From the NCBI GenBank assembly GCA_019058315.1, contig JAHPZH010000001.1:149466-213465 (forward strand): 64,000 nucleotides of DNA. Reading direction: 5' to 3'. Both the position numbers and the translations under genes were made by a program. Positions 36,069 through 60,881 of this stretch are shown piece by piece. This DNA comes from Candidatus Helarchaeota archaeon (GTDB lineage: Archaea; Asgardarchaeota; Lokiarchaeia; Helarchaeales; RDOG01). Below the pieces are notes generated by a model. It ran no database searches, was not told where the DNA came from, and worked only from the letters and a program-made list of their open reading frames with translations. The stretch's first letter is position 1, and every line of letters starts with the position of its first letter.

Positions 36069-36599
36069 TTATTTAGAAAAATGACTAGCACAATCAACAG
36101 CTAATTTTTGAAAAGTATCTTGAACATTTAAGCCGGACTTAGCTGAAGTCATGAAATAAGTTATACCTAATTCATCAACAAGTTTTTTAATTTCTTCTTC
36201 ATTAACTACAATTTGGTTAGTTAAATCTGACTTATTACACATTAGAACAAGAGGTATCTTTTCACCCGCACCAGTTAAAATATCTGTTACCCATTTTTTA
36301 ACATTATCAAAGGTTTCTTTTCGAGTTAAATCAAAAGCTATTATTCCTCCATGGGCTCCACTATAGTAAAAAGATCTAATCGATTGAAATCGATCATGTC
36401 CTCCAATATCCCAAACTGTCATTATAACTTGTGCATCGGGCAATTCAATAACTTTAAGATTAAAATCTGCTCCAATTGTTGGTAGATATGATGTATCGAA
36501 TTTGTTTTCAGAAAATCTTCGAATCAAAGAAGTCTTTCCGACTGCCGGATCCCCAATTACCACAATTTTAAAAGCTAATTTCTTCTCAATACTTGGCAT
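36069..36599 (-). CDS. Rab-like small GTPase
   Basis: G1 GDPAVGKTS, G2 YLPTIGADF, G3 WDIGGH, RFQSI/YYSGA, G4 NKSD, G5 TSAK. Confidence 0.93.
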   Translation of the reverse strand: MPSIEKKLAFKIVVIGDPAVGKTSLIRRFSENKFDTSYLPTIGADFNLKVIELPDAQVIMTVWDIGGHDRFQSIRSFYYSGAHGGIIAFDLTRKETFDNVKKWVTDILTGAGEKIPLVLMCNKSDLTNQIVVNEEEIKKLVDELGITYFMTSAKSGLNVQDTFQKLAVDCASHFSK

Positions 36600-40750: not shown

Positions 40751-41278
40751 TTGATTTACAACCTTTTTATTTTAACAAAATCTGGCATAGCGATTTTTTA
40801 TAAAACTTATTCGCCAGAATCTATTATTAATAATGAGGTTATGGTAGCTGCTTTTTTTTCAGCAATGTTTTCGTTTTCTAACAATCTTACAGGACGTTCT
40901 CTAGATTTATTACGTGTAGGCGAAAGACAATTCGTTATAAAAGAAACAGCTGATTTATTAATTATAGTTTTAGTCGATAATGACGATAATATGTCCGAGA
41001 TTCTTGAAAAATTAGACTCTTTAGTTGATTTTTTGTATAAGAACTATAGTGTATATATTACAAAAAGAACGTTTGACGGAGATTTAGAACGTTTTGCAGG
41101 TATCGAGCTAGAAATTGATAATATAATATTAAAAAAGCCAGTTTCTAAAACAAGTAGTAGTGTTTTGGAAACTCTTGAAGAAATTAAAAGATTATTGAAC
41201 ACTCGTAAGAAAGGTACAAAATTAAAATTGGATAAGTTATTGGATGAAAAAATAAAAGAAGCGAAAAAACAATCTTAA
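40751..41278 (+). CDS. Stand-alone longin-like domain protein
   Basis: MIYNLFILTKSGIAIF..MVAAFFSAMFSFS..LIIVLVD..FDGDLERF..IDNII. Confidence 0.7.
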   Translation: MIYNLFILTKSGIAIFYKTYSPESIINNEVMVAAFFSAMFSFSNNLTGRSLDLLRVGERQFVIKETADLLIIVLVDNDDNMSEILEKLDSLVDFLYKNYSVYITKRTFDGDLERFAGIELEIDNIILKKPVSKTSSSVLETLEEIKRLLNTRKKGTKLKLDKLLDEKIKEAKKQS

Positions 41279-42857: not shown

Positions 42858-43484
42858 TTGTCAAAAGATTGGAAAGAAAATTTTAATGACTTTAAATGCA
42901 AGGTTTGCAATTTTCCTTTAATCTTATATGAAGTTCAAGCTAAAAAAGATACCACTATTTTTAAAGCCAAATGTCCAGCTCATGGATTTGGAACTATAAA
43001 AATTCCAACAGGTGTGGTTTCAAATTTCATTCCACAAATTACAGATCAGATTTTTCGTTGTTTTACATGCGGTGGATCTGCCACTCTTGATCAAATGGTA
43101 GATAAAGATGTCTGGAAAATTATAAAAGTAAAATGTCCAATTCATGGTATTTCAAAAAAATATAAATATAATTATCACGTGTTTTCAGAAGTTTGGGCTT
43201 TTAAACAGAAAGGAATTTCGGCAACTAAACCAATAGAAAAGAAAATCCCTATAAAAGAACCTCCGAAGGAAAAGAAAAAGACTGAAAGAGAAGAAATCCA
43301 ATTCTGTAGGGAATGTGGAGTTAAATTAAAACCAGATTATCTTTTTTGTAATAAATGTGGAGTTAAAATAATCAAAGTTCCAATTAAAAAAGATGCACCT
43401 AAAGAACAGAATTTTTGTGGGGAATGTGGCTATCCGACTGACCATAAATATAAGTTTTGTATTCGATGTGGAACAAAATTATGA
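42858..43484 (+). CDS. Multi-zinc-ribbon protein
   Basis: Two CxxC...CPxHG modules, a Lys/Pro linker, and two FCxxCG..FCxxCG ribbons. Confidence 0.75.
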   Translation: MSKDWKENFNDFKCKVCNFPLILYEVQAKKDTTIFKAKCPAHGFGTIKIPTGVVSNFIPQITDQIFRCFTCGGSATLDQMVDKDVWKIIKVKCPIHGISKKYKYNYHVFSEVWAFKQKGISATKPIEKKIPIKEPPKEKKKTEREEIQFCRECGVKLKPDYLFCNKCGVKIIKVPIKKDAPKEQNFCGECGYPTDHKYKFCIRCGTKL

Positions 43485-43594
43485 GAGATTTTAACAAAAA
43501 ATCTTAAATTTCTAGATATAAAACCGTCAAAAACATAAAAAGTCTGGAATTAAATAATTTTTTACGCTAATAGAATAAATAAATTAGATTTAAG

Positions 43595-43606
43595 TGTGAT
43601 ATCACA
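43595..43606. promoter_or_regulatory. Perfect 12-bp palindrome upstream of the ACR-associated gene pair
   Basis: TGTGATATCACA, 11 bp upstream of TATA-like TTTAATAA (43618-43625). Confidence 0.45.
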
Positions 43607-43671
43607 AACAGATCAAATTTAATAATTATTTCATTCTCACAATATTTAATTCAGATCTGGAAGATTAGAAG

Positions 43672-44703
43672 TTGAGATTTGACATTTATAAACAGATGTG
43701 GCCTTTAGCCCGTCATATTTATCAAGCATTATGTATCGAAAAGACAATTGAGATTCCAAATGTTACCAATGATACAAAGATAGACGATATTTATTTAAAA
43801 GAACCATGGTTCTCAATAACGCAAGAAATAATTAATGAAGTTTCTGCAAGAATGGATACGGCAATTGTGCATGCTAAAGAATATCAAGAAAATAAAGAAA
43901 AAATTTATACTGATTTCTGGATGTTACCTCCAAGCGTCGCAATATCTTCAAATATTCAAAAAGATACTACACAACTTATTTATGGAAAAAAATGTACTTG
44001 TAGCTTCGTCCTCTTAGATGATTTTACCGGTGAGCTACTCGCTATCTGGAGTAATTATCTCGAAGCAGGTTTTCCAGTAGATCGCTATTATATAGCCCCT
44101 ATTTTGGAAGGTCATGAAAGTGATAACGAGCTTTTCAATAGGAGGCATTTAAAATTAGGGGAAAAGCTAAGAGATATTGCAAAGAAGAAAGATAGAACAT
44201 TAGTAGAATCTGCTAAGTATATTTTAGACATTCTGTATGATCTTAGAAATGAAAAACATCCGGAGCGAGTAAAAGCAAACTTCTTTATTTGTATGTCATT
44301 AATAAGTGGTTCAATAAATCAAATGGTTATGAGATCTAATTATGATGTCCTAGCAACAATTTGGGATGGGGTTAATTCAAAGAATTTGGGATATCCAGAG
44401 CAATATTTTTTCTATTATCCCTGGCCACCAATATTAAATACATTATTTGCTGCTCCCCGTGACATTTGGATTCAAAGACTCACATCTCTTACAACTAAAG
44501 GTCGATTTTACCTTAATCATCAAGAGACCAAATGTTCCGTAATGAATGAAAAATTCGGTCGGTATCGATATTTAATACCTAATAAAGAACAATTATTAAA
44601 AGCTAAAATTCCATCAATAAAAGAAGGACGGAATGAGTATATTTTCCCAGAAACTGAAAATCCCATCCCTCTTGATATTAAAGAAAGAAGCTTTATTGAA
44701 TAA
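43672..44703 (+). CDS. ACR-associated protein of unknown family, paralog 1
   Basis: Shares TT.LIYG, E.G.PVD, RRH.KLG.KLR, ILDIL.D.RNE, IWDGV and PWPPIL.TLFA with the next ORF. Confidence 0.8.
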   Translation: MRFDIYKQMWPLARHIYQALCIEKTIEIPNVTNDTKIDDIYLKEPWFSITQEIINEVSARMDTAIVHAKEYQENKEKIYTDFWMLPPSVAISSNIQKDTTQLIYGKKCTCSFVLLDDFTGELLAIWSNYLEAGFPVDRYYIAPILEGHESDNELFNRRHLKLGEKLRDIAKKKDRTLVESAKYILDILYDLRNEKHPERVKANFFICMSLISGSINQMVMRSNYDVLATIWDGVNSKNLGYPEQYFFYYPWPPILNTLFAAPRDIWIQRLTSLTTKGRFYLNHQETKCSVMNEKFGRYRYLIPNKEQLLKAKIPSIKEGRNEYIFPETENPIPLDIKERSFIE

Positions 44704-44736
44704 TTTTTAATAATTTTTAATGAAATTGTGTAGATA

Positions 44737-45891
44737 ATGAGCCAATTTAATTATGGTGATATTCCGGATTCAGTTCCTTCAAAACCTTTGCTTCCTTTAG
44801 GTGAACATCTATGGAAATTATATAAGAAACTCGGATGGGATTATTTCATACAAAAATTTACTGATCCGAGTGTAGGTTATTTCCCAGAATTTGCAGAATT
44901 TATCAGTGAAAAGTTTCAAACAGCCGTTGATACAACTAAAAAAGTTCTTAATGAGGAAATCAATGAACCTGATAAAGTTCTAACAACTTGGTTTTTTCCT
45001 CCAGTAATTTTCGTCCGTTCTGACCTTCAAATGGGGACTACAAAACTTATTTACGGGGATTCAACTGATATAACGTTTACTATTATGAATGATACCAACT
45101 ACGAAATAGAATTGCTATGGAATGGGCATATGGAGGAGGGTCTACCTGTCGATTATTGGTACATCAGTGGCGAAGATGAAGTATTTGATAGGAGACATAT
45201 GAAACTAGGGTACAAACTTCGGGAAATTCCCAAAAAAATTAAAAATTTTGTAAAAAGTGGAAATCGTATTTTAGATATATTACGAGATGTTCGAAATGAG
45301 CGAAGTCCACAATGGGCTGACGCTGCGTATTCCACATGTATGCTTTGGATTTCTGGGGCTACCAATATATTTTGTGAACCTTCAAGTTGGAGTGCGCTTG
45401 CAGAAATCTGGGATGGTGTCACCGCTAAAAAAAATTATGGGAGACCTGACCATTGGTTCTGCTATACCCCCTGGCCTCCTATTTTAAGAACTCTATTTGC
45501 TATGGACCGTGATGAATGGACTATTAGATTAACAGGTCTATTAACCAGCCATCATTTATTTATCAATGGCTTTGAACCAAAGATGAAGAGTTTTCATAAG
45601 AATATTATACCCGAAATTTGGGAATGTATAATAGATAATATGAAAGAAAAAGGAGTTCCTACTCCAAGGCAGACCCTAGGTTGTAAAATCCCCAATCTAA
45701 AAAATAAAAAGAAATTTCAACGAGAAGAATTTGAATTTAATTATCCAAGTGGTACCAAAATTATGCCTTACGAATGGGGATTAACAGATGATGAAATCTT
45801 TGATGGAATTTATACTGATTTTACCCATGAAACACCATCAGAACTAAATTATGGGAAAGAACATATAATTAAAATTGGAATTGGTAAGTAA
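44737..45891 (+). CDS. ACR-associated protein of unknown family, paralog 2
   Basis: Same shared blocks; longer C-terminus; 178 bp upstream of acrB. Confidence 0.8.
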   Translation: MSQFNYGDIPDSVPSKPLLPLGEHLWKLYKKLGWDYFIQKFTDPSVGYFPEFAEFISEKFQTAVDTTKKVLNEEINEPDKVLTTWFFPPVIFVRSDLQMGTTKLIYGDSTDITFTIMNDTNYEIELLWNGHMEEGLPVDYWYISGEDEVFDRRHMKLGYKLREIPKKIKNFVKSGNRILDILRDVRNERSPQWADAAYSTCMLWISGATNIFCEPSSWSALAEIWDGVTAKKNYGRPDHWFCYTPWPPILRTLFAMDRDEWTIRLTGLLTSHHLFINGFEPKMKSFHKNIIPEIWECIIDNMKEKGVPTPRQTLGCKIPNLKNKKKFQREEFEFNYPSGTKIMPYEWGLTDDEIFDGIYTDFTHETPSELNYGKEHIIKIGIGK

Positions 45892-46069
45892 GAATGATAG
45901 GTACAATTGATAATTAAGATGATTTTACCAAATAATTCTGTATTAAATTATAACAACTTAGAAAGAAAACAAAATAAACAAAAATAATAATTTTAATTAT
46001 ATTATTAGTTTGAATTTTTTAATTTTTTAAATCAAATTGATTTCATTAGAACTTATTTTAGTGATTTGA

Positions 46070-47467
46070 TTGAAATATAAGGATATTTTTGATTTATATA
46101 GTGATACTGGTGAATGTTTGGCTGAGGACGTTCCTCTTGAAGCAATATCCCCAATGTATAACAAACATGTCCAAAAACTTCTAAAAATCTTTCGTACGAC
46201 AGCTTTTATAGATCTCGAAAAAGTCCAAAATATGTTCTCCAGAGGTCGTGCAGGACATACTACGAGTGTTAGACAAGATGAAGTTCAAATGAAACAATAC
46301 TCAAGAAAACTACCTATTATTCGTCAAGCTAAAGAAATTGCAGAGAAAATGGAAGAAATAATAGATATTAAGCCACTTGATGGCAATGGGGAAAAGGATA
46401 CAGAAATTAAATTGTTTAATAACGATAAAATGATACTTGTAAAAATGTCTAACCAAAGAATGGGTATATCCACCAGTAGAGCTCCCGTATTTACAATAAC
46501 GGGTTTAGCCTTTGGACAAGCAGTTTCTGAGATTTTTGATATTACTCCAGAAACAGATCCAGATGCTTGTGCTTTCTTAAAAAACGTCATATTTGGTCGT
46601 TATCCCCAAACAGTTACTTTTCAACCAGGAAATCCTGTGAGTAGTTTTTTGAATCCCCCACAACAACAAGAGGGTATTGGCTTAGGTTATCGTGGAATTA
46701 CGATAAATCACTTAGTTGCGTTATCTAATAGGCGTACCTTTGACGCAGTGGCTCTCACAAGCGTTTTAGAACAAGGTTGTCAATTTGAGACTGGTAATGC
46801 ATTAGGATGGTACGAAAGATATAATTTATTAGGTTTTGCTTACCAGGGGTTAAATGCAGATTGCTTAGTATTAGATTTAATTGAAGATAATGGTGATGGT
46901 ACCGTAGGTACTGTAATTCACTCACTTATGAAACGTGCGTTAGAGGATGGAGTCATTGAACCAAGAGGAGATAAATTTCCAGATGTTCAAACAGGTGGTT
47001 ATAAATTATATAAAACTCCTGACTTTCCTTTATGGAATGGATATACTTGCGCTGGTCTTTTAGCTGCCTGTATAGCCAACGTTGGAGCAAGCCGAGCTGC
47101 TCAATGCGTTTCTGCAGTTTTAGCTGGATTTGGCGATATGCTTACATTTGAATCAGGAGGTTTACCCGACCCAGATTGTGGAAGAGTTATGGGTACAGGG
47201 TTAGGATACTGTTTTTATACTCATAGTATTTATGGTGGGGCAGGTCCAGGAGCATTTCCAATGGATAATGTATTAGTAAAACATACATCTGGGTTTTTTA
47301 CTCCTTGTGTAGCTGCAGCTATGTGTTTAGATGCTGGAACACAAATTTTTGGACCTGAAGCTACTTCAAAGGGTTTTTTTACAATTCGTGAACAATTCGA
47401 AGATTTTAAAGATCCTTTAATAAAAATTGCAGATGCAGCTATAGAAATAAAGAAGAAATTAAGGTAA
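46070..47467 (+). CDS. mcrB: Alkyl-coenzyme M reductase beta subunit (divergent McrB)
   Basis: VPLEAISP, GRYPQT, AYQGLNAD, VGASRAAQ, DCGRVMGT, YTHSIYGGAGPG, AAAMCLDAGTQ. Confidence 0.96.
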   Translation: MKYKDIFDLYSDTGECLAEDVPLEAISPMYNKHVQKLLKIFRTTAFIDLEKVQNMFSRGRAGHTTSVRQDEVQMKQYSRKLPIIRQAKEIAEKMEEIIDIKPLDGNGEKDTEIKLFNNDKMILVKMSNQRMGISTSRAPVFTITGLAFGQAVSEIFDITPETDPDACAFLKNVIFGRYPQTVTFQPGNPVSSFLNPPQQQEGIGLGYRGITINHLVALSNRRTFDAVALTSVLEQGCQFETGNALGWYERYNLLGFAYQGLNADCLVLDLIEDNGDGTVGTVIHSLMKRALEDGVIEPRGDKFPDVQTGGYKLYKTPDFPLWNGYTCAGLLAACIANVGASRAAQCVSAVLAGFGDMLTFESGGLPDPDCGRVMGTGLGYCFYTHSIYGGAGPGAFPMDNVLVKHTSGFFTPCVAAAMCLDAGTQIFGPEATSKGFFTIREQFEDFKDPLIKIADAAIEIKKKLR

Positions 47468-47473
47468 TTAAAA

Positions 47474-48292
47474 ATGACAGAAATAAAAGAAAGAAAAAGA
47501 AAGAAATTTAAGCATAAAGTAGATTATAGCCCACAATTATATCCCGGTTCAGAACCGGTTGCTGAACGTAGACGTAAAATAATGAATCCTAATAAACGAT
47601 TAATTAAACTAAGAGACATTCCAGATGATGAAATTGTAATGATTCTAGGTCATAGATCACCTGGTGCATTATATACCAGTATTCATCCTCCCCTTGATGA
47701 AATTATAGAACCATTTGATCCTGTAAAACATATCATTAAACCCACTGCTGGAGCTCGTGCTGGAGATAGAATGAGATTTGTTCAATTTTCTGATAGTTTT
47801 TGGAGACCCGTAATTGCTCCCTGGTTGAGAGCAAGGTTATATTTTAGTCGATTTCGCGGAGTAGATACAGTAATTTATTCTGGTCGCCAATTATTAGAGA
47901 TGCGTGAAAGAGATATTGAAGAAGCTACTAGAATTCTAATTGAAACCGAATTATTCGATCCAGCCCGAACTGCTTTACGTGGGTTGACAGTACATGGGCA
48001 TGCTTTACGTCTGGATTCGAATGGTTTGATGTTTGATGCTCGAAAAAGGTATGTTTATGATCCTGATATTAATGAAGTTATATATGTGAAAGATATGCAT
48101 GCCCAAGTTCTTGATGAACCAATTGCAGTTGGTAGACCTTTAACTGAAGAAGAATTAATGGCTATGGATGTTACTTATCGTTGGGATTCCGCCCAATACA
48201 AATCTCGTACAGACATATTAGCAGTCATAGCTAGAATTTCAAAATTTAGAATATTAGGGGGATTTAAACCAGATTTAATTAATGGAAGATAA
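47474..48292 (+). CDS. mcrG: Alkyl-coenzyme M reductase gamma subunit (divergent McrG)
   Basis: PQLYPG, LGHRSPG.YTSIHPPL, GDRMRFVQF, RFRGVD..YSGRQ..EMRERD, RGLTVHGHALRLD.NGLMFD. Confidence 0.96.
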   Translation: MTEIKERKRKKFKHKVDYSPQLYPGSEPVAERRRKIMNPNKRLIKLRDIPDDEIVMILGHRSPGALYTSIHPPLDEIIEPFDPVKHIIKPTAGARAGDRMRFVQFSDSFWRPVIAPWLRARLYFSRFRGVDTVIYSGRQLLEMRERDIEEATRILIETELFDPARTALRGLTVHGHALRLDSNGLMFDARKRYVYDPDINEVIYVKDMHAQVLDEPIAVGRPLTEEELMAMDVTYRWDSAQYKSRTDILAVIARISKFRILGGFKPDLINGR

Positions 48293-48305: not shown

Positions 48306-50111
48306 ATGGGAAAAGATTTAGCTTTTAAAAAAGATGAAGTCGCAGGCGAAAGTCGTTATAAGTACGAACTTTCTGAAATTGCAAAAAAGTTTCTTCCAAT
48401 AGAAAAAGAAAGGTTAATTTATCGAACCATGAAAAAAGTCTTTGATATTGATCCTATGTCCATTATTGATCCTAAGATGTATCATCGCGGGGGATATAGG
48501 CAGTTAAGCTCAAAGAAAAAATTTACTGAATTAGGGAAACAAATAGCAAAAGAAAGAGGAATTCCGGCATATAGTAGATCCGTAGGGATTCCCTTAGGTC
48601 AAAGGGCTTTGGAGCCCTATGTAATATCTGGTACAGAGATTATTGTAGATTATGATGACTTACATCATGTTAATAATGCAGCCATACAGCAAATGCTTGA
48701 TGATGTTAAGCGAACAGTAATCCTCAATTTAGATCTACCTCATCAAGTATTACAAGTTAGAGCAGGAAAAGAAATAACACCTGAAACTGTTAATTTATAC
48801 TTAGAAACTTGTCAGCATACAATAGCAGGAGGAGCTGTAGCACAAGAACACATGGCAGAAATTAATCCTGGTCTTACTAGTGATTCTTATGTAAAAGTTA
48901 TAACTGGAAGTGATGAAGTTAAAGACAATTTGGATAGACGATATCTAATCGATATAGATAAACTCTTTCATCCTACTCGAGCTGAAGCTTTAAAAAATGC
49001 GATTGGTAATACGATGTTTATGGTAGCAAGAGTTCCTACAATAACAGTTCGTATGGGTGATGGAGGAGTTGTTTACAGATGGGCAGCTATGCAATCTTCA
49101 ATGGCATTTATTTCTGCATACCATCTAACTGGAGAGTCAATAATTTCAGATATAGCATTTGCTGCAAAATCTGCTCAATGTATTGTGATGGGAGAAAGAA
49201 CTTGGTATTCTCGTGCGAGAAGCCAAAATGAACCTGGAGGAATTCCATTTGGATACATAGCTGATATATGTCAATGTTTTTCGGCCCTTCCTGCCGGAAG
49301 AAGTTTTATTGATATTATAGTAGATGATATTGAAGAAGGAAGAAAATATTTACATGCTATGGCAGAAGGTTTGGGAACTGTAGGTACTCTTTTAACAGAA
49401 TTACTTTGGTATGGCTTTTATATGTCTGGCGGACTTGGATTTTCTACAGGAGTAGCCGCAGGTGCTTATTGTGGTAATGTAATCGAAGATTTCGTAGATT
49501 CTTTATCGGAATTAATACATAAATATATGAAAGGAGTAAGGAAAGTTCCTCCTAAATGGGATACTGTAAGATGGATTATCGACACTTCTATCCAAATTAT
49601 GATGGAAACATATGAAAAATATCCTAGCCTCATGGAATACCATTGGGGAGGGGCTCATAGAATTTCACTGATTGGCGGGCTTGCTGGAAATACTGCCTCT
49701 ATGCTTACTGGCTCACCAATTTTAGGTCTTGCTGGAATAAATTATACTATAGCATTACTCATGAAGGAAGGTTGGGTTAGAACTGGCTGGGCAGGACAAG
49801 AAGTCCAAGACCATGTAGGTCTTGCCTATTCTATGGCCTTAAGGATGGAAGAAGGTGGAGTTCCTGAATTAAGAGGTGCGAATTACCCAGTCGCCTCATA
49901 TACCGCTGGACATAGTGCAAGTTATATCGGGGCATGTCTAACATCGGCTATGGCAAGGGGTGATGCATTCGTTTGCAGTCCTCAAGTTAAAGTTGCATTT
50001 GCAGATCCTCATTTAATATTTGATTTCCGTAATCCCAGGTTGGAAATTGCAAAGGCTTGTCTAAAAGAATTTAAACCAGCTGGAGAAAGAAATTTAATAT
50101 CTGCACTTTAA
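48306..50111 (+). CDS. mcrA: Alkyl-coenzyme M reductase alpha subunit (divergent McrA)
   Basis: DDLHHVNNAAIQQ, AVAQEHM, RWAAMQ, NEPGG, YMSGGLGF, HWGGAHR, RTGWAGQEVQDH, ELRGANYP, KVAFAD, F.PAGER. Confidence 0.97.
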   Translation: MGKDLAFKKDEVAGESRYKYELSEIAKKFLPIEKERLIYRTMKKVFDIDPMSIIDPKMYHRGGYRQLSSKKKFTELGKQIAKERGIPAYSRSVGIPLGQRALEPYVISGTEIIVDYDDLHHVNNAAIQQMLDDVKRTVILNLDLPHQVLQVRAGKEITPETVNLYLETCQHTIAGGAVAQEHMAEINPGLTSDSYVKVITGSDEVKDNLDRRYLIDIDKLFHPTRAEALKNAIGNTMFMVARVPTITVRMGDGGVVYRWAAMQSSMAFISAYHLTGESIISDIAFAAKSAQCIVMGERTWYSRARSQNEPGGIPFGYIADICQCFSALPAGRSFIDIIVDDIEEGRKYLHAMAEGLGTVGTLLTELLWYGFYMSGGLGFSTGVAAGAYCGNVIEDFVDSLSELIHKYMKGVRKVPPKWDTVRWIIDTSIQIMMETYEKYPSLMEYHWGGAHRISLIGGLAGNTASMLTGSPILGLAGINYTIALLMKEGWVRTGWAGQEVQDHVGLAYSMALRMEEGGVPELRGANYPVASYTAGHSASYIGACLTSAMARGDAFVCSPQVKVAFADPHLIFDFRNPRLEIAKACLKEFKPAGERNLISAL

Positions 50112-50124
50112 AGATGGTGGTTAA

Positions 50125-50631
50125 ATGAGTAAAATTGGAAAACCTGCATTAGAAATAGGTTATGATTACAAAGAATTAGAAGAAAATTGGTGGAAAAGTA
50201 GGGATTGGCTTTTTCCTCGAGAAGAAGAACCAACTGCATTTGAAGCTATGCATGATTTCATGATAAATCGTATAGTTCCAAGTCCAAAAGCTGTAGAAAT
50301 TGCTGGATATTTTGTCCCTAGAATTATATTATTAGAAGTTCTACACCCTAAAAGAGGATCCGAATTTGTTAGAATAATGTTAAGCCCTACTGATATTGCT
50401 CCAGGAGTCCCAGATGCAGAATCAGATCTTATAATTAAAATTCAATATTATGATCTAATGCGAGTTCTGGATGCAGAAGAAGGATTTGATGTTATGACCC
50501 CACTTTGGGGCGGAAATGCCTTTTTAATAGGAAATGTTACAGCAGGTCTGGATCTTAAAGATCTTTTGGATGCCGCAAATAACAAACCACACATCGATAG
50601 ACCTAGAATCTGGCCTATGGGTAATCCTTAA
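50125..50631 (+). CDS. Putative SCP2-like lipid-binding protein in the acr operon
   Basis: SDLIIKIQYYDLMRVLD..FDVMTPLWGGNAFLIGNVTAGLDLKDLL follows the SCP2 C-terminal pattern; 13 bp after acrA; GGTGG RBS. Confidence 0.55.
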   Translation: MSKIGKPALEIGYDYKELEENWWKSRDWLFPREEEPTAFEAMHDFMINRIVPSPKAVEIAGYFVPRIILLEVLHPKRGSEFVRIMLSPTDIAPGVPDAESDLIIKIQYYDLMRVLDAEEGFDVMTPLWGGNAFLIGNVTAGLDLKDLLDAANNKPHIDRPRIWPMGNP

Positions 50632-50643
50632 TTATACTTTTTA

Positions 50644-51717
50644 ATGGTTAATCGACTATATTATTTAAAGACAAATAAAGTGATTGCACGAGTGGTACTT
50701 GTTTCTATAGTTAAAGGTAAAAATCATTATTCAACTACTAAAAAAGCTTTAGAATTAATTTCAGACCAAATACCTCAGATCAGAAAAAAAGTTTTAATAA
50801 ACCCAAATCTCCTAACTGATAAAAAAATGGAAGCTGTGGTCACAAATCCAAGAGTCTGTATGGCTATAGCCGATTTTTTATATGAAAAGTACGGAACAGG
50901 CAAAAAAATCACCCTTGGAGCAGGAACTACCGCTGGAGAATCAATGAATGCAATAAAAAATAATGAATATCTTAATTTTTTAAATACAAAGTTTCTATTA
51001 GAAAAACCATGGTTACCTATAGATTTGAATAATGATAAGACGGGCGAATGGTTTCCCATTTTTACTCCCGGTCTTGACTATAAAATGGAGCTGGGAATTG
51101 CGAAAAATGCCATCAATACTGACTATTTAGTTAGTGCGGCAAAATTAAAGACACATGATGTTCTAGGATTCACTTTAACCCTGAAAAACCTCATGGGTGC
51201 TTTGAGTGAAGGACGTAGAACCGATACACATGAAATCATTGTTAAAGGTAAAAAAACAAAACCACAAATGCATGGTTTTGGCAATAATAATCCAAATACA
51301 TTAACAGAGGAACAAAATACGGGTGTGTCTAAACTTGCATTAGCAATAAATATTATTAGAATGGGAAAAATTCTATTCAAAAATCGTCCACATCTCGCAG
51401 TATTAGATGCAATTACGGCAATGGAGGGTGATGGACCATTATCTCATGGGATACCCAAACAACTCAATTTAATAATTGCAGGTACTGATGTTATTGCTGT
51501 TGATAGGGTTGCATGTGAAATTGCTGGTTCGGGAAAAACAATTCAATATATACTACAAGCTGGTAAAGTGGGTATTGGTGAAGCAAATTTGGATAATATT
51601 GAAATAGTTGGAGAAACTATTGATAATGTGAAGAATGAATTAAAGATGCATAGATTATTTAAATTCTCAGATTTTTCCCAAAAAGAACTCCGCATTCTAG
51701 ATGATTATACTATTTAA
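50644..51717 (+). CDS. DUF362 family protein
   Basis: VLINPNL, TNP, AKLKTH, TLTLKNLMG, DAITAMEGDGP, IAGTDVIAVD. The true start may be slightly downstream. Confidence 0.85.
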   Translation: MVNRLYYLKTNKVIARVVLVSIVKGKNHYSTTKKALELISDQIPQIRKKVLINPNLLTDKKMEAVVTNPRVCMAIADFLYEKYGTGKKITLGAGTTAGESMNAIKNNEYLNFLNTKFLLEKPWLPIDLNNDKTGEWFPIFTPGLDYKMELGIAKNAINTDYLVSAAKLKTHDVLGFTLTLKNLMGALSEGRRTDTHEIIVKGKKTKPQMHGFGNNNPNTLTEEQNTGVSKLALAINIIRMGKILFKNRPHLAVLDAITAMEGDGPLSHGIPKQLNLIIAGTDVIAVDRVACEIAGSGKTIQYILQAGKVGIGEANLDNIEIVGETIDNVKNELKMHRLFKFSDFSQKELRILDDYTI

Positions 51718-59054: not shown

Positions 59055-60881
59055 ATGAGTAGTTATATGAAAAAAATTCTTAGAATTGATTTATCAAATA
59101 ATAAGATAAAAGATGAGATTCCTGACGATAAACTCTTGAGGGATTATATTGGTGGATGTGGTTTAGCTTCGAAATTAATCGTTGACGAAATTAATGGTAA
59201 CACAAATCCCTTAGGGGCAGAAAATAAATTATTATTCATGACCGGTCCTTTAGTAGGCACAACTGCTCCAAGTAATGGAAGACATGTTGTTTGTTCTAAA
59301 TCCCCGTTAACTAATATTTGGGGTGAGGCACATTCAGGAGGAAGATTCGGACCAGAATTAAAATTTGCTGGGATAGATGGTTTAATATTTGAAGGACAAT
59401 CAAATAATCCAGTCTATCTCAAAATTGATGATGAATCTATTGAAATAAAAGATGCAAGTCATATTTGGGGAAAAGATACTTATGAGACTGAAAAAGCTCT
59501 AAAATCAGAACTTGGGGATAAAAAGTATAAGGTGGCATCTATTGGGCAGGCAGGAGAAAATTTACTAAAAATTTCTTCAGTAATGAATGACATGGGACGG
59601 GCAGCGGGAAGATGTGGTCTTGGTGCAGTAATGGGATCTAAAAAACTAAAAGCTATTGTTGTGAAGGGCACTAAAAAGCCAACTATTGCAGATGAAAGAT
59701 TTAATACAATGGCTCTGGAATTTCGAAAGAGAATAAGTGAAAGAGGAGGCATCTTAAGAAAATATGGAACGCCAATAGCGATTAGAAATTTATCAAAATT
59801 TGGAGATATTCCTATTAAAAACTGGCAATTGGGGGACTGGGAAGGTCTTGAAACAATAAATGAAATAGCAAATCTTAGCATTTTAAAAAAACCTATTTCA
59901 TGTTATGGATGTCCTGTAGGTTGTGGACGAAATATAGAAATTAAAGAAGGTAATTATAAGACCGAAGGTGCAGGACCGGAATATGAAACATTAGCGGCAT
60001 TTGGGTCTTCATGTTTAAATGCTAACTTAGAATCAATCGTTAAATGTAATGATATCTGTAATCGATATGGGCTTGATACAATTTCTACTGGAACAACTGT
60101 TGCCTTTGCATTAGAATGCTTTGAAAAAGGATTAATTTCTAGAGAAGAATTGGGATTTGAACTGAATTGGGGGGACCATGAAGCAATTGTTAAAATGACC
60201 GAGTTAATGGCAAATAATGAAGGTTTTGGGAAAATTTTTAATAATGGGACTAAAATTGCTTCAGAAAAAATAAAAGGATCAAATGAATTTGCAGTCCATG
60301 TCAAAGGTTTGGAAATTCCTATGCATGATCCAAGAGCTTTCTATAGTATGGGACTAGAATATGCTACTGGAAATAGAGGAGCTTCGCATTTAGAAGGAAC
60401 CCCTTTTAAAGTTGCGTTAGGATCATTAATGCCAGAAATTGGTATAAATAAAATTGTAGACAGATTTGAAACTTCTGGAAAGGGTCGGATTACTGCTCTA
60501 ACTCAAAATGTAAATGCAGTAAGTAATTCTACCATTATGTGTGTGTTTGTAAGAGACTATATAAATGCAAGTGATTTTACTAGACTCTTAAATTATGCAA
60601 CAGGTTTTGATTACACTGTCTCTGAATTATTAAAAATTGGTGACCGAATACATAATGTGAAACGCGTTTTTAATATATTATGTGGAATAACCGAAAAGGA
60701 TGATACTTTACCCCCTCGATCTCTCGAACCCACAAAAGAAGGTGGAAATGCTGGTATGGTGCCTGATATGAAAAGTATGTTAAAAGAATATTATGAATTT
60801 AGAGGATGGAAGAATGGTATTCCGACTAAGGAGAAACTGAAAGAATTGAATTTAAACTACCTTATCTCAAAAATTCCCTAA
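59055..60881 (+). CDS. aor: Tungsten-dependent aldehyde:ferredoxin oxidoreductase family
   Basis: KSPLT, SGGRFG, GRCGLGAVMGSK, CYGCPVGC, EYET, GLDTISTG, NRGASH, IMCVF. Confidence 0.93.
   Translation: MSSYMKKILRIDLSNNKIKDEIPDDKLLRDYIGGCGLASKLIVDEINGNTNPLGAENKLLFMTGPLVGTTAPSNGRHVVCSKSPLTNIWGEAHSGGRFGPELKFAGIDGLIFEGQSNNPVYLKIDDESIEIKDASHIWGKDTYETEKALKSELGDKKYKVASIGQAGENLLKISSVMNDMGRAAGRCGLGAVMGSKKLKAIVVKGTKKPTIADERFNTMALEFRKRISERGGILRKYGTPIAIRNLSKFGDIPIKNWQLGDWEGLETINEIANLSILKKPISCYGCPVGCGRNIEIKEGNYKTEGAGPEYETLAAFGSSCLNANLESIVKCNDICNRYGLDTISTGTTVAFALECFEKGLISREELGFELNWGDHEAIVKMTELMANNEGFGKIFNNGTKIASEKIKGSNEFAVHVKGLEIPMHDPRAFYSMGLEYATGNRGASHLEGTPFKVALGSLMPEIGINKIVDRFETSGKGRITALTQNVNAVSNSTIMCVFVRDYINASDFTRLLNYATGFDYTVSELLKIGDRIHNVKRVFNILCGITEKDDTLPPRSLEPTKEGGNAGMVPDMKSMLKEYYEFRGWKNGIPTKEKLKELNLNYLISKIP

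Follow-up and report, generated by a model that had tools for sequence, protein, structure and literature searches.

A protein family that probably serves one clade of archaeal alkyl-coenzyme M reductases, represented by two adjacent paralogs in a Helarchaeota genome

Two adjacent genes in the genome of a Candidatus (Ca.) Helarchaeota archaeon encode members of a protein family that is, with high probability, an accessory specific to one clade of alkyl-coenzyme M reductases (ACRs). The genes occur in a 64,000-nucleotide stretch of DNA, here called ‘the window’ (GenBank assembly GCA_019058315.1, contig JAHPZH010000001.1, positions 149,466 to 213,465 of the forward strand; G000:C3:149466-213465 in our own numbering), that forms part of a genome of 5.79 Mb with a G+C content of ~30%. 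The first gene, P0001 (43672..44703, + strand), specifies 343 amino acids (aa) and begins with a TTG codon right after an in-frame TAG; the second, P0002 (44737..45891, +), specifies 384 aa, begins with ATG, and is separated from the first by 33 bp. Both belong to a co-oriented run on the + strand that comprises, in order, a zinc-ribbon gene, P0001, P0002, acrB, acrG, acrA, a gene termed u168, and a DUF362 gene. The three acr genes encode the beta subunit (46070..47467, +; Pfam MCR_beta, 1.6e-87, and MCR_beta_N, 6e-31), the gamma subunit (47474..48292, +; MCR_gamma, 1.1e-91) and the 601-aa alpha subunit (48306..50111, +; MCR_alpha_N, 3.8e-99) of an alkyl/methyl-coenzyme M (CoM) reductase. Homologs of P0001 and P0002 carry the names of Helarchaeota, Promethearchaeota or Helarchaeales metagenome-assembled genomes (MAGs). 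A repeat search of positions 43400-46100 returned nothing meaningful.

The first-pass annotation of this region, made from the sequence without database searches, took the two open reading frames (ORFs) for paralogs, and alignment upholds this. BLASTP pairs them with 107 identities in 280 positions (38%; E 1e-58), far above chance, and the blocks of similarity listed at the time (W..PP, TT.LIYG, E.G.PVD, F.RRH.KLG.KLR, D.RNE, CM..ISG..N, IWDGV and Y.PWPPIL) all lie within the alignment. Both genes look functional, to judge from low dN/dS ratios: 0.06 for P0001 against its ortholog at locus L061, and 0.12 for P0002 against its nearest paralog, figures that are rough because dS is saturated in both comparisons. 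The family is marked by a signature that reads, in order, PP ... YG.S.D ... H.E.G ... RRH.K.G ... D...D.RNE..P, set in a core of ~230 residues. Checked in alignments, the set of motifs is complete in P0002 and nearly complete in P0001, and the two proteins score 613 and 301 bits, respectively, against the family hidden Markov model (HMM). P0001 deviates at two nearly invariant positions, with Lys for the Ser of YG.S.D and Tyr for the His of H.E.G, and, compared with the long forms, is missing the TYGDIPD block at the N terminus and the final ~60 residues at the C terminus; it retains the YG, E.G, RRH.KLG and D.RNE..P motifs. Twelve positions (P0002 numbering) are invariant among 46 Helarchaeal members: K16, G107, E133, R152, R153, H154, G158, D184, R186, N187, E188 and P191. 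Fewer elements are kept through all lineages (PP, G107, H.E.G, RRH..G and D.R.E), and of the RRH triplet the first Arg and the His are invariant in this wider comparison while the second Arg is present in at least 90% of members. The patch of conserved Arg, His and Lys residues that had been picked out by eye is thus genuine: RRH.K.G does not vary in Helarchaeales. The Cys shared by the two proteins, regarded at the time as conserved and possibly catalytic, fared otherwise, being present (as C201 of P0002) in only 18 of the 46 aligned Helarchaeal members.

Neither protein matches any Pfam or NCBIfam family at E values up to 1. This covers nucleotide-binding and Fe-S families, in agreement with the first reading, and, within Pfam, SCP2 (PF02036), LCP (PF03816), McrC (PF04609) and McrD (PF02505). 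Four diverse members of the family likewise have no match in PADLOC or PHROGs at E up to 0.1, and the family profile has none among PDB sequences. An AlphaFold2 model of P0002 built from 46 homologs is of high quality (pLDDT 93, pTM 0.91), and one of a member from Syntropharchaeia (P0271), built from 38 homologs, has a pLDDT of 86, its secondary-structure elements following one another as in the first. Foldseek searches of the PDB with these two models returned no match at E<=1e-3 and matched no characterised family; probabilities were below 0.5, save for one unrelated row at 0.90, with a TM score of 0.18, for the P0002 model. Rows to UvrC-C, PilM, FtsA and Ppx (ASKHA and RNase H-like folds) had E values of 0.02-0.5, again with probabilities below 0.5, and VIA-align Z scores of 4.2 or less. 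The best match of the P0002 model in an exhaustive VIA-align comparison, in which noise extends to about Z 7-8, was to SCP2 (Z 4.8, rmsd 3.7 A over 117 residues). SCP2 scored Z 4.2 on the Syntropharchaeia model, and LCP scored Z 4.5 and 4.7 on the two models over 120-143 residues, all beneath the same level. In the ESM Atlas, the closest entries reached a TM score of at most 0.35 by shape, for the P0002 model, and a cosine of 0.76 by features, neither of them convincing. P0001 and P0002, judged by sequence, are members of what appears to be an undescribed family of soluble proteins.

The family is narrowly distributed. Searched with a profile, 1.84 billion representative proteins yielded 141 matches at E<=1e-3, and those that are named come from Helarchaeota-type MAGs, Hadarchaeales, Syntropharchaeia, Alkanophagales, Ca. 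Methanoliparum, ‘Halobacteriota’ MAGs of a tar biofilm, and the archaeoglobal genome JdFR-42. A scan of a genome collection with a single C-terminal pattern taken from a Halobacteriota subgroup, which covers that subgroup, added Archaeoglobi JdFR-42, an Archaeoglobaceae MAG, Ca. Alkanophaga volatiphilum, and Ca. Syntrophoarchaeum butanivorans (SBU_000316). Among Asgard archaea, the family occurs in 7/7 Helarchaeales, all of which possess MCR-type (methyl-CoM reductase-type) alpha subunits, versus 0/393 other genomes. Within Syntropharchaeia it is present in 9 of 79 genomes, and an alpha subunit in 66; within Archaeoglobi, the corresponding figures are 2 and 10 of 96. Not one of the genomes scanned was found to have the family without acr. 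Copy number in Helarchaeales is high: a first look gave 18-44 candidates per genome, and the source genome of the window has 33 full-length paralogs of 33-67% identity, many of them in tandem, versus three MCR-type alpha genes. The link to acr suggested by the first-pass annotation is therefore borne out by a family that is seen only in genomes with alkyl-CoM reductases and that adjoins acrA in five lineages. Between genomes, no distribution independent of acr was seen, which favours the link; within Helarchaeales genomes, however, the majority of the 18-44 copies stand apart from acr, and this counts against it. Every non-Asgard genome with the family also holds a second, far more divergent relative of ~330-400 aa (E 1e-7 to 1e-27; G400:C1:171135-171962, G402:C26:629-1093, G401:C48, G404:C6, G405:C41, G479:C31 and G572:C87), and in JdFR-42 the distance between this second relative and the other alpha gene is ~6 kb.

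In the classes scanned, the family follows one kind of alpha subunit and as a rule lies no more than about 1.5 kb from acrA, often in the operon itself. In Syntropharchaeia, a family gene on the same strand lies 0.4-1.5 kb upstream of every one of the 11 alphas closest to AcrA of the window (47-51% identity, 593-646 aa), and the other ACR paralogs in the same genomes, which are 42-44% identical to AcrA of the window, are without one. The Archaeoglobi genomes that have the family are exactly the two with a long alpha subunit 54-55% identical to that of the window; eight genomes with other alphas do not have it. In a tree of AcrA sequences, one clade holds the alphas linked to the family, that of the window included (Helarchaeal group I, Hadarchaeal, Halobacteriota and Archaeoglobi), and a split with a support of 100 separates it from a second ACR group of Helarchaeales. 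At none of the four loci of this second group with an upstream flank is there a family gene nearby, and the fifth locus is at a contig edge. The alphas of this second clade (loci L022-L026: G123:C154, G127:C97, G126:C103, G128:C27 and G124:C15) are 40-48% identical, and their operons retain the small protein encoded after acrA. Related genomes are not independent data points; the same contrast nonetheless recurs in three separate higher taxa.

The gene orders vary around this common theme, and the family adjoins or sits inside the acr operon in Asgard archaea, Hadarchaeota, Syntropharchaeia and Archaeoglobi. Syntropharchaeia have the orders acrB-acrG-141 aa-family-acrA-205 aa, and 117 aa-family-acrA. 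The tar-biofilm MAGs have the order acrB-acrG-[family-small protein]1-2-acrA-u168 together with arrays of three to five family/small-protein cassettes (L051, L058), and in these MAGs the copy number of the family scales with that of the alpha subunit (14 versus 11 matches and 11 versus 6). In Archaeoglobi, the family gene and a small protein gene are divergent from acrBGA-u168. The order in Hadarchaeales is acrA-194 aa-(CoA ligase)-156 aa-family-(SCP2)-AFOR, where AFOR denotes aldehyde:ferredoxin oxidoreductase, and in Ca. Methanoliparum, with no acr nearby, 388 aa-family-Fer4-AFOR ... AMP-forming ligase. In Helarchaeales, acr-linked copies occur in the window, at L061 and L063, on contig C5 of the source genome, and at G125:C94, where there is a single copy within the acr operon. 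The C5 locus, the second acr locus of the source genome, has a pair (C5:373415/374918) from another combination of subfamilies, situated before acrA. The third, on C11, has no copy in the 20 kb around the locus, the nearest being ~15 kb from acrA.

AFOR is the other enzyme with which the family recurs. It is encoded directly beside a family member in five lineages: Hadarchaeales, Ca. Methanoliparum, tar-biofilm MAG21, Ca. Alkanophaga volatiphilum, and the source genome. Genes for an ADP-forming CoA ligase and for SCP2 are also part of the neighbourhood in Hadarchaeales. The source genome has 15 AFOR paralogs, two of which (C3:1476971 and C9:179835) have a family member no more than 3 kb away; the AFOR gene of the window (59055..60881, +; Pfam AFOR_C, 4.2e-131) lies 13 kb downstream of P0001 and P0002. 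Assigned to Pfam families, the 150 neighbours of the 33 paralogs of this genome (three genes on each side) are heterogeneous and have no dominant partner (MFS 5, radical SAM 5, GNAT 4, GTPase 3, FAD_binding_4 3, AFOR 2 and MCR alpha 2). Some of these paralogs adjoin pairs of a FAD-linked oxidase (VAO-type) and a CCG/HdrD-like protein, and an amine-oxidase-like flavoprotein (G000:C8:17424-25149, C3:898178-902577 and C9:130647-137297); possibly these neighbours are redox partners for thioether or alcohol oxidation. Elsewhere in Helarchaeales, genes of the short subfamily to which P0001 belongs stand beside a DUF2112-DUF2102-DUF8179 set (L062:613-3027 and L063:4067-6441), families that we take to be of the methanogenesis-marker type and tied to MCR activation.

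Small cysteine-rich proteins also accompany the family. In Halobacteriota and Archaeoglobi, the family gene is paired with a gene for a Cys3His protein of 103-184 aa, in cassettes that are single between acrG and acrA or repeated three to five times in tandem (e.g. L039:7563-7988, L035:7645-7998, L042:6361-6687, L051 and L058). These partners are homologous to one another and share a Cys...Cys...Cys-x-x-Gly-His pattern and a WADVP.VPPGTIK block. They have no similarity to the family HMM, and on that account we rejected an origin of the small upstream proteins as fragments broken off from family members. In two Ca. Syntrophoarchaeum loci (L047:8001-9683 and L048:8001-9674), the genes for the family member and for the small Cys3His protein share a reading frame, with little more than one stop codon between them; in Ca. 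S. butanivorans this stop is TGA, and read-through would give an open frame of 560 aa. The arrangement could be due to chance, to a recent split or fusion, or to stop-codon read-through. Directly upstream of P0001, the window encodes a 208-aa multi-zinc-ribbon protein (42858..43484, +; Pfam DZR, E 4.5e-10) that has two CxxC...CPxHG knuckles of the Cys3His type and a C-terminal double zinc ribbon, and that is syntenic in L061. Its match to the profile of the Halobacteriota small proteins is not significant (E 0.08), and that profile matches nothing among the ORFs of at least 80 aa in the source genome. In function it may correspond to the Halobacteriota partner.

The 168-aa protein u168 (50125..50631, +), which is without a Pfam match, is of a type that follows acrA in all lineages, in nearly every acr operon examined for which the downstream flank is present. 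Its homologs include the proteins encoded after acrA in Hadarchaeales, Syntropharchaeia and a tar-biofilm MAG (30-43% identity, E 1e-20 to 1e-41), one homolog having a faint match to SCP2 (E 0.17), and it appears to be a second undescribed, conserved accessory of ACRs. The co-oriented run of the window ends with the DUF362 gene (50644..51717, +; Pfam DUF362, 3.7e-33), which is syntenic in L061. So are two genes upstream of the run that are typical of Asgard ‘eukaryotic signature’ genes: one for a Ras-family small GTPase (36069-36599, - strand) and one, identified by a weak match, for a longin/clathrin-adaptor-sigma-like protein (40751-41278, +).

The adjacency to AFOR, the acyl-CoA ligases that accompany it in Hadarchaeales and Ca. 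Methanoliparum, the invariant charged cluster, and the weak likeness to folds that bind alkyl tails together suggest a role in binding alkyl-CoM. We propose tentatively, and with rather less than even confidence, that the family protein handles alkyl-CoM as an accessory feeding aldehyde oxidation. It would take up the amphipathic product of ACR, alkyl-S-CoM, holding the anionic sulfonate head on the invariant Arg-Arg-His/Arg-Asn-Glu/Glu cluster, while a hydrophobic cleft within the alpha/beta core received the alkyl tail. The thioether might then be cleaved by the family protein itself, or the substrate passed to an oxidoreductase, and the resulting aldehyde would reach AFOR, then an acyl-CoA synthetase, and then beta-oxidation. 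The family would thereby form part of the link between alkyl-CoM and acyl-CoA, and its many diverged paralogs would be matched to different alkyl groups or oxidoreductase partners. A more specific version, in which the family protein and, in Halobacteriota, its small Cys3His partner free the alkyl moiety of alkyl-S-CoM in the form of an aldehyde or its equivalent, is doubtful. If true, it would mean a new fold and a new kind of thioether chemistry, by which ACR would be coupled to AFOR and beta-oxidation in the ACR clade that acts on alkanes from C3 to long-chain, with a substrate range encoded by the paralog expansions.

Several observations weigh against a role in alkyl-CoM handling. The family protein has no redox cofactor motif and so cannot alone carry out the two- or four-electron oxidation needed. 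None of the named matches comes from an ethane oxidiser, and the family is therefore not a universal alkyl-CoM-converting step. Nor does every ACR-rich genome have it, since in G478, a member of Syntropharchaeia with four ACR-like alphas, no family member was found even at E 0.1. The lipid-binding cleft is only a lead, because the fold matches are below noise (Z<5). In Helarchaeales, most of the 33 copies keep mixed company (MFS, radical SAM/B12, GNAT and GTPases), and the copy-for-copy linkage to acrA in the tar-biofilm MAGs would fit a specific partner of AcrA equally well.

Such a partner might be a maturation factor, that is, a chaperone or a helper in assembly, cofactor insertion or modification for the alpha subunits of one AcrA clade. 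The operons of methanogens offer a precedent, mcrD and mcrC sitting between structural genes in the order mcrBDCGA. The family gene lies right before acrA and often between acrG and acrA, and as this slot is that of mcrD and mcrC, we count it in favour of maturation. Also in keeping with it are the adherence of the family to one AcrA clade and not to the alkane lifestyle as a whole, the scaling of its copies with the alphas of the tar-biofilm MAGs, YcaO and B12-radical-SAM genes near the copies at L037 and L042, and the placement of short-subfamily genes at L062 and L063 beside the DUF2102, DUF2112 and DUF8179 genes, presumed to be tied to MCR activation. A chaperone, however, would hardly be expected in arrays of three to five cassettes with a zinc protein (L051, L058) or in 33 copies to three alphas, mostly far from acr. 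Copies in Ca. Methanoliparum and at L041 have AFOR or an HdrA-like gene as a neighbour and lack a nearby acr, and no similarity to McrC or McrD is detectable with Pfam. On balance we consider maturation the main rival reading, though rather unlikely. A role as carrier, in which the protein would bring hydrophobic alkanes into solution and pass them on to ACR, with paralogs for different hydrocarbons, is improbable. The structural likeness to SCP2 lipid carriers on which it draws is repeated in both models but lies below the noise level; an SCP2 gene does neighbour the family in Hadarchaeales, MFS transporters are found among the neighbours, and the expansions occur in oil- and tar-associated genomes and in Helarchaeales. 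Yet a pure hydrocarbon has no need of an invariant charged cluster (RRH, RNE, E, D and K), and the family is present in Ca. S. butanivorans, which oxidises butane, a substrate that requires no carrier.

The function could, in principle, be unrelated to ACR, the gene being a regulator, defence gene or mobile element that travels with acr islands by horizontal transfer. High copy number, tandem arrays, the heterogeneous neighbourhoods in Helarchaeales, and the weak Foldseek matches with folds of the RNase H-like and ASKHA types would be in line with this. It is made very improbable by the placement of the family, on the same strand and tightly spaced, in the acr operons of four phylum-level lineages, by the lack of a DNA-binding domain and of PADLOC or PHROGs matches, and by the character of the paralogs, which, unlike insertion-sequence copies, are old, diverged and under purifying selection. 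For these last reasons, and since the copies are embedded in operons, a transposase or mobile-element identity was rejected. The proposal of the first-pass annotation, that P0001 and P0002 form a heterodimeric enzyme with a catalytic Cys, is scarcely credible as an obligate arrangement. Tandem pairs drawn from two subfamilies do precede acr at two loci of the source genome (the window and C5:373415/374918), and the two genes of the window are closely spaced. But at L061, a close syntenic relative in which a zinc-ribbon gene, a short-subfamily gene, acrBGA, a u167 gene and DUF362 follow one another, the short gene is the only member before acrBGA and there is no P0002-type gene; the operon at G125:C94 has one copy, the other lineages have one copy and a small zinc (Cys3His) protein, and the Cys is absent from most Helarchaeal members. 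The subfamilies point the same way. Orthologs of P0001 in other Helarchaeales MAGs are 342-353 aa long and 46-90% identical, one of them, at L063, lying tail-to-tail with acrBGA. In a cross-lineage tree with midpoint rooting, this short subfamily is the deepest Helarchaeal branch, and the remaining Helarchaeal copies form one clade (support 94). P0002 falls within the latter in a group of four with C5:374918, C3:545414 and C9:136143 (support 100), all from the source genome, the only genome in which a P0002-type gene is seen between P0001 and acrB. From these relationships, P0001 is the conserved, syntenic, ACR-linked copy, and P0002 an extra, lineage-specific copy from the Helarchaeales expansion. 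Since P0002 is a local addition beside a conserved P0001, an obligate heterodimer of the two is unlikely.

How alkyl-CoM is turned into acyl-CoA has been the acknowledged black box of anaerobic alkane oxidation by archaea since 2016. Papers of 2023-2024 describe the enzymes of the alkyl-CoM step as unknown, one comparative-genomic screen having found no candidate (PMC10322722, PMC11297162 and PMC11543930). A literature search by locus tags and accessions found no paper that mentions the family, and SBU_000316 is absent from the examined part of Supplementary Data 3-4 of PMC11543930. The family supplies a testable candidate for a missing part of the process in the form of a short list of genes, among them SBU_000316 in the cultured Ca. 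S. butanivorans. Should it prove to be an enzyme or carrier acting after ACR, it would be the first such candidate and would fill a gap in the pathway. Should it be an ACR-specific maturation factor, it would help in the expression of ACRs for alkane bioconversion; to our knowledge, these enzymes have resisted functional heterologous expression. As a genomic marker for its ACR clade, the family is sharper than acrA alone.

Among known systems, the closest in structure, weak as the likeness is, are SCP2 and the LCP phosphotransferases. The best structural rows of both models span almost the whole of the SCP2 domain (PF02036; PDB 2cx7, 2nbm and 3bn8). SCP2 holds alkyl tails in a tunnel between its sheet and its helices, which is what a binder of alkyl-CoM would need. 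The new family differs in being three times as large, with additional parts at both the N and the C terminus, and in having an invariant charged cluster that SCP2 lacks. Comparable weak rows were obtained with both models for LCP proteins (PF03816; PDB 3owq, 2xxp, 6uf6 and 6uex). In these enzymes, conserved arginines hold an anionic head group and a hydrophobic groove holds a polyprenyl tail, an arrangement analogous to that suggested here. However, LCPs are bacterial, extracytoplasmic enzymes of the cell wall, whereas members of the new family are archaeal, cytoplasmic and without a membrane anchor. In genetic context the nearest counterparts are McrC and McrD, which are also soluble, small to medium in size, operon-specific, and encoded among the structural genes of a reductase. 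They differ from the new family in size and have no sequence similarity to it, and they have not undergone the massive expansion of paralogs that it has; the new family, for its part, is tied to one ACR clade. In pathway terms, the comparison is with the AFOR route proposed for alkyl-CoM oxidation in Ca. Ethanoperedens and Hadarchaeota (PMC10811742 and PMC10322722). Those proposals name AFOR alone and the new family does not figure in them, yet its adjacency to AFOR in five lineages fits just such a sequence, from alkyl-CoM to aldehyde, to acid, and to acyl-CoA.

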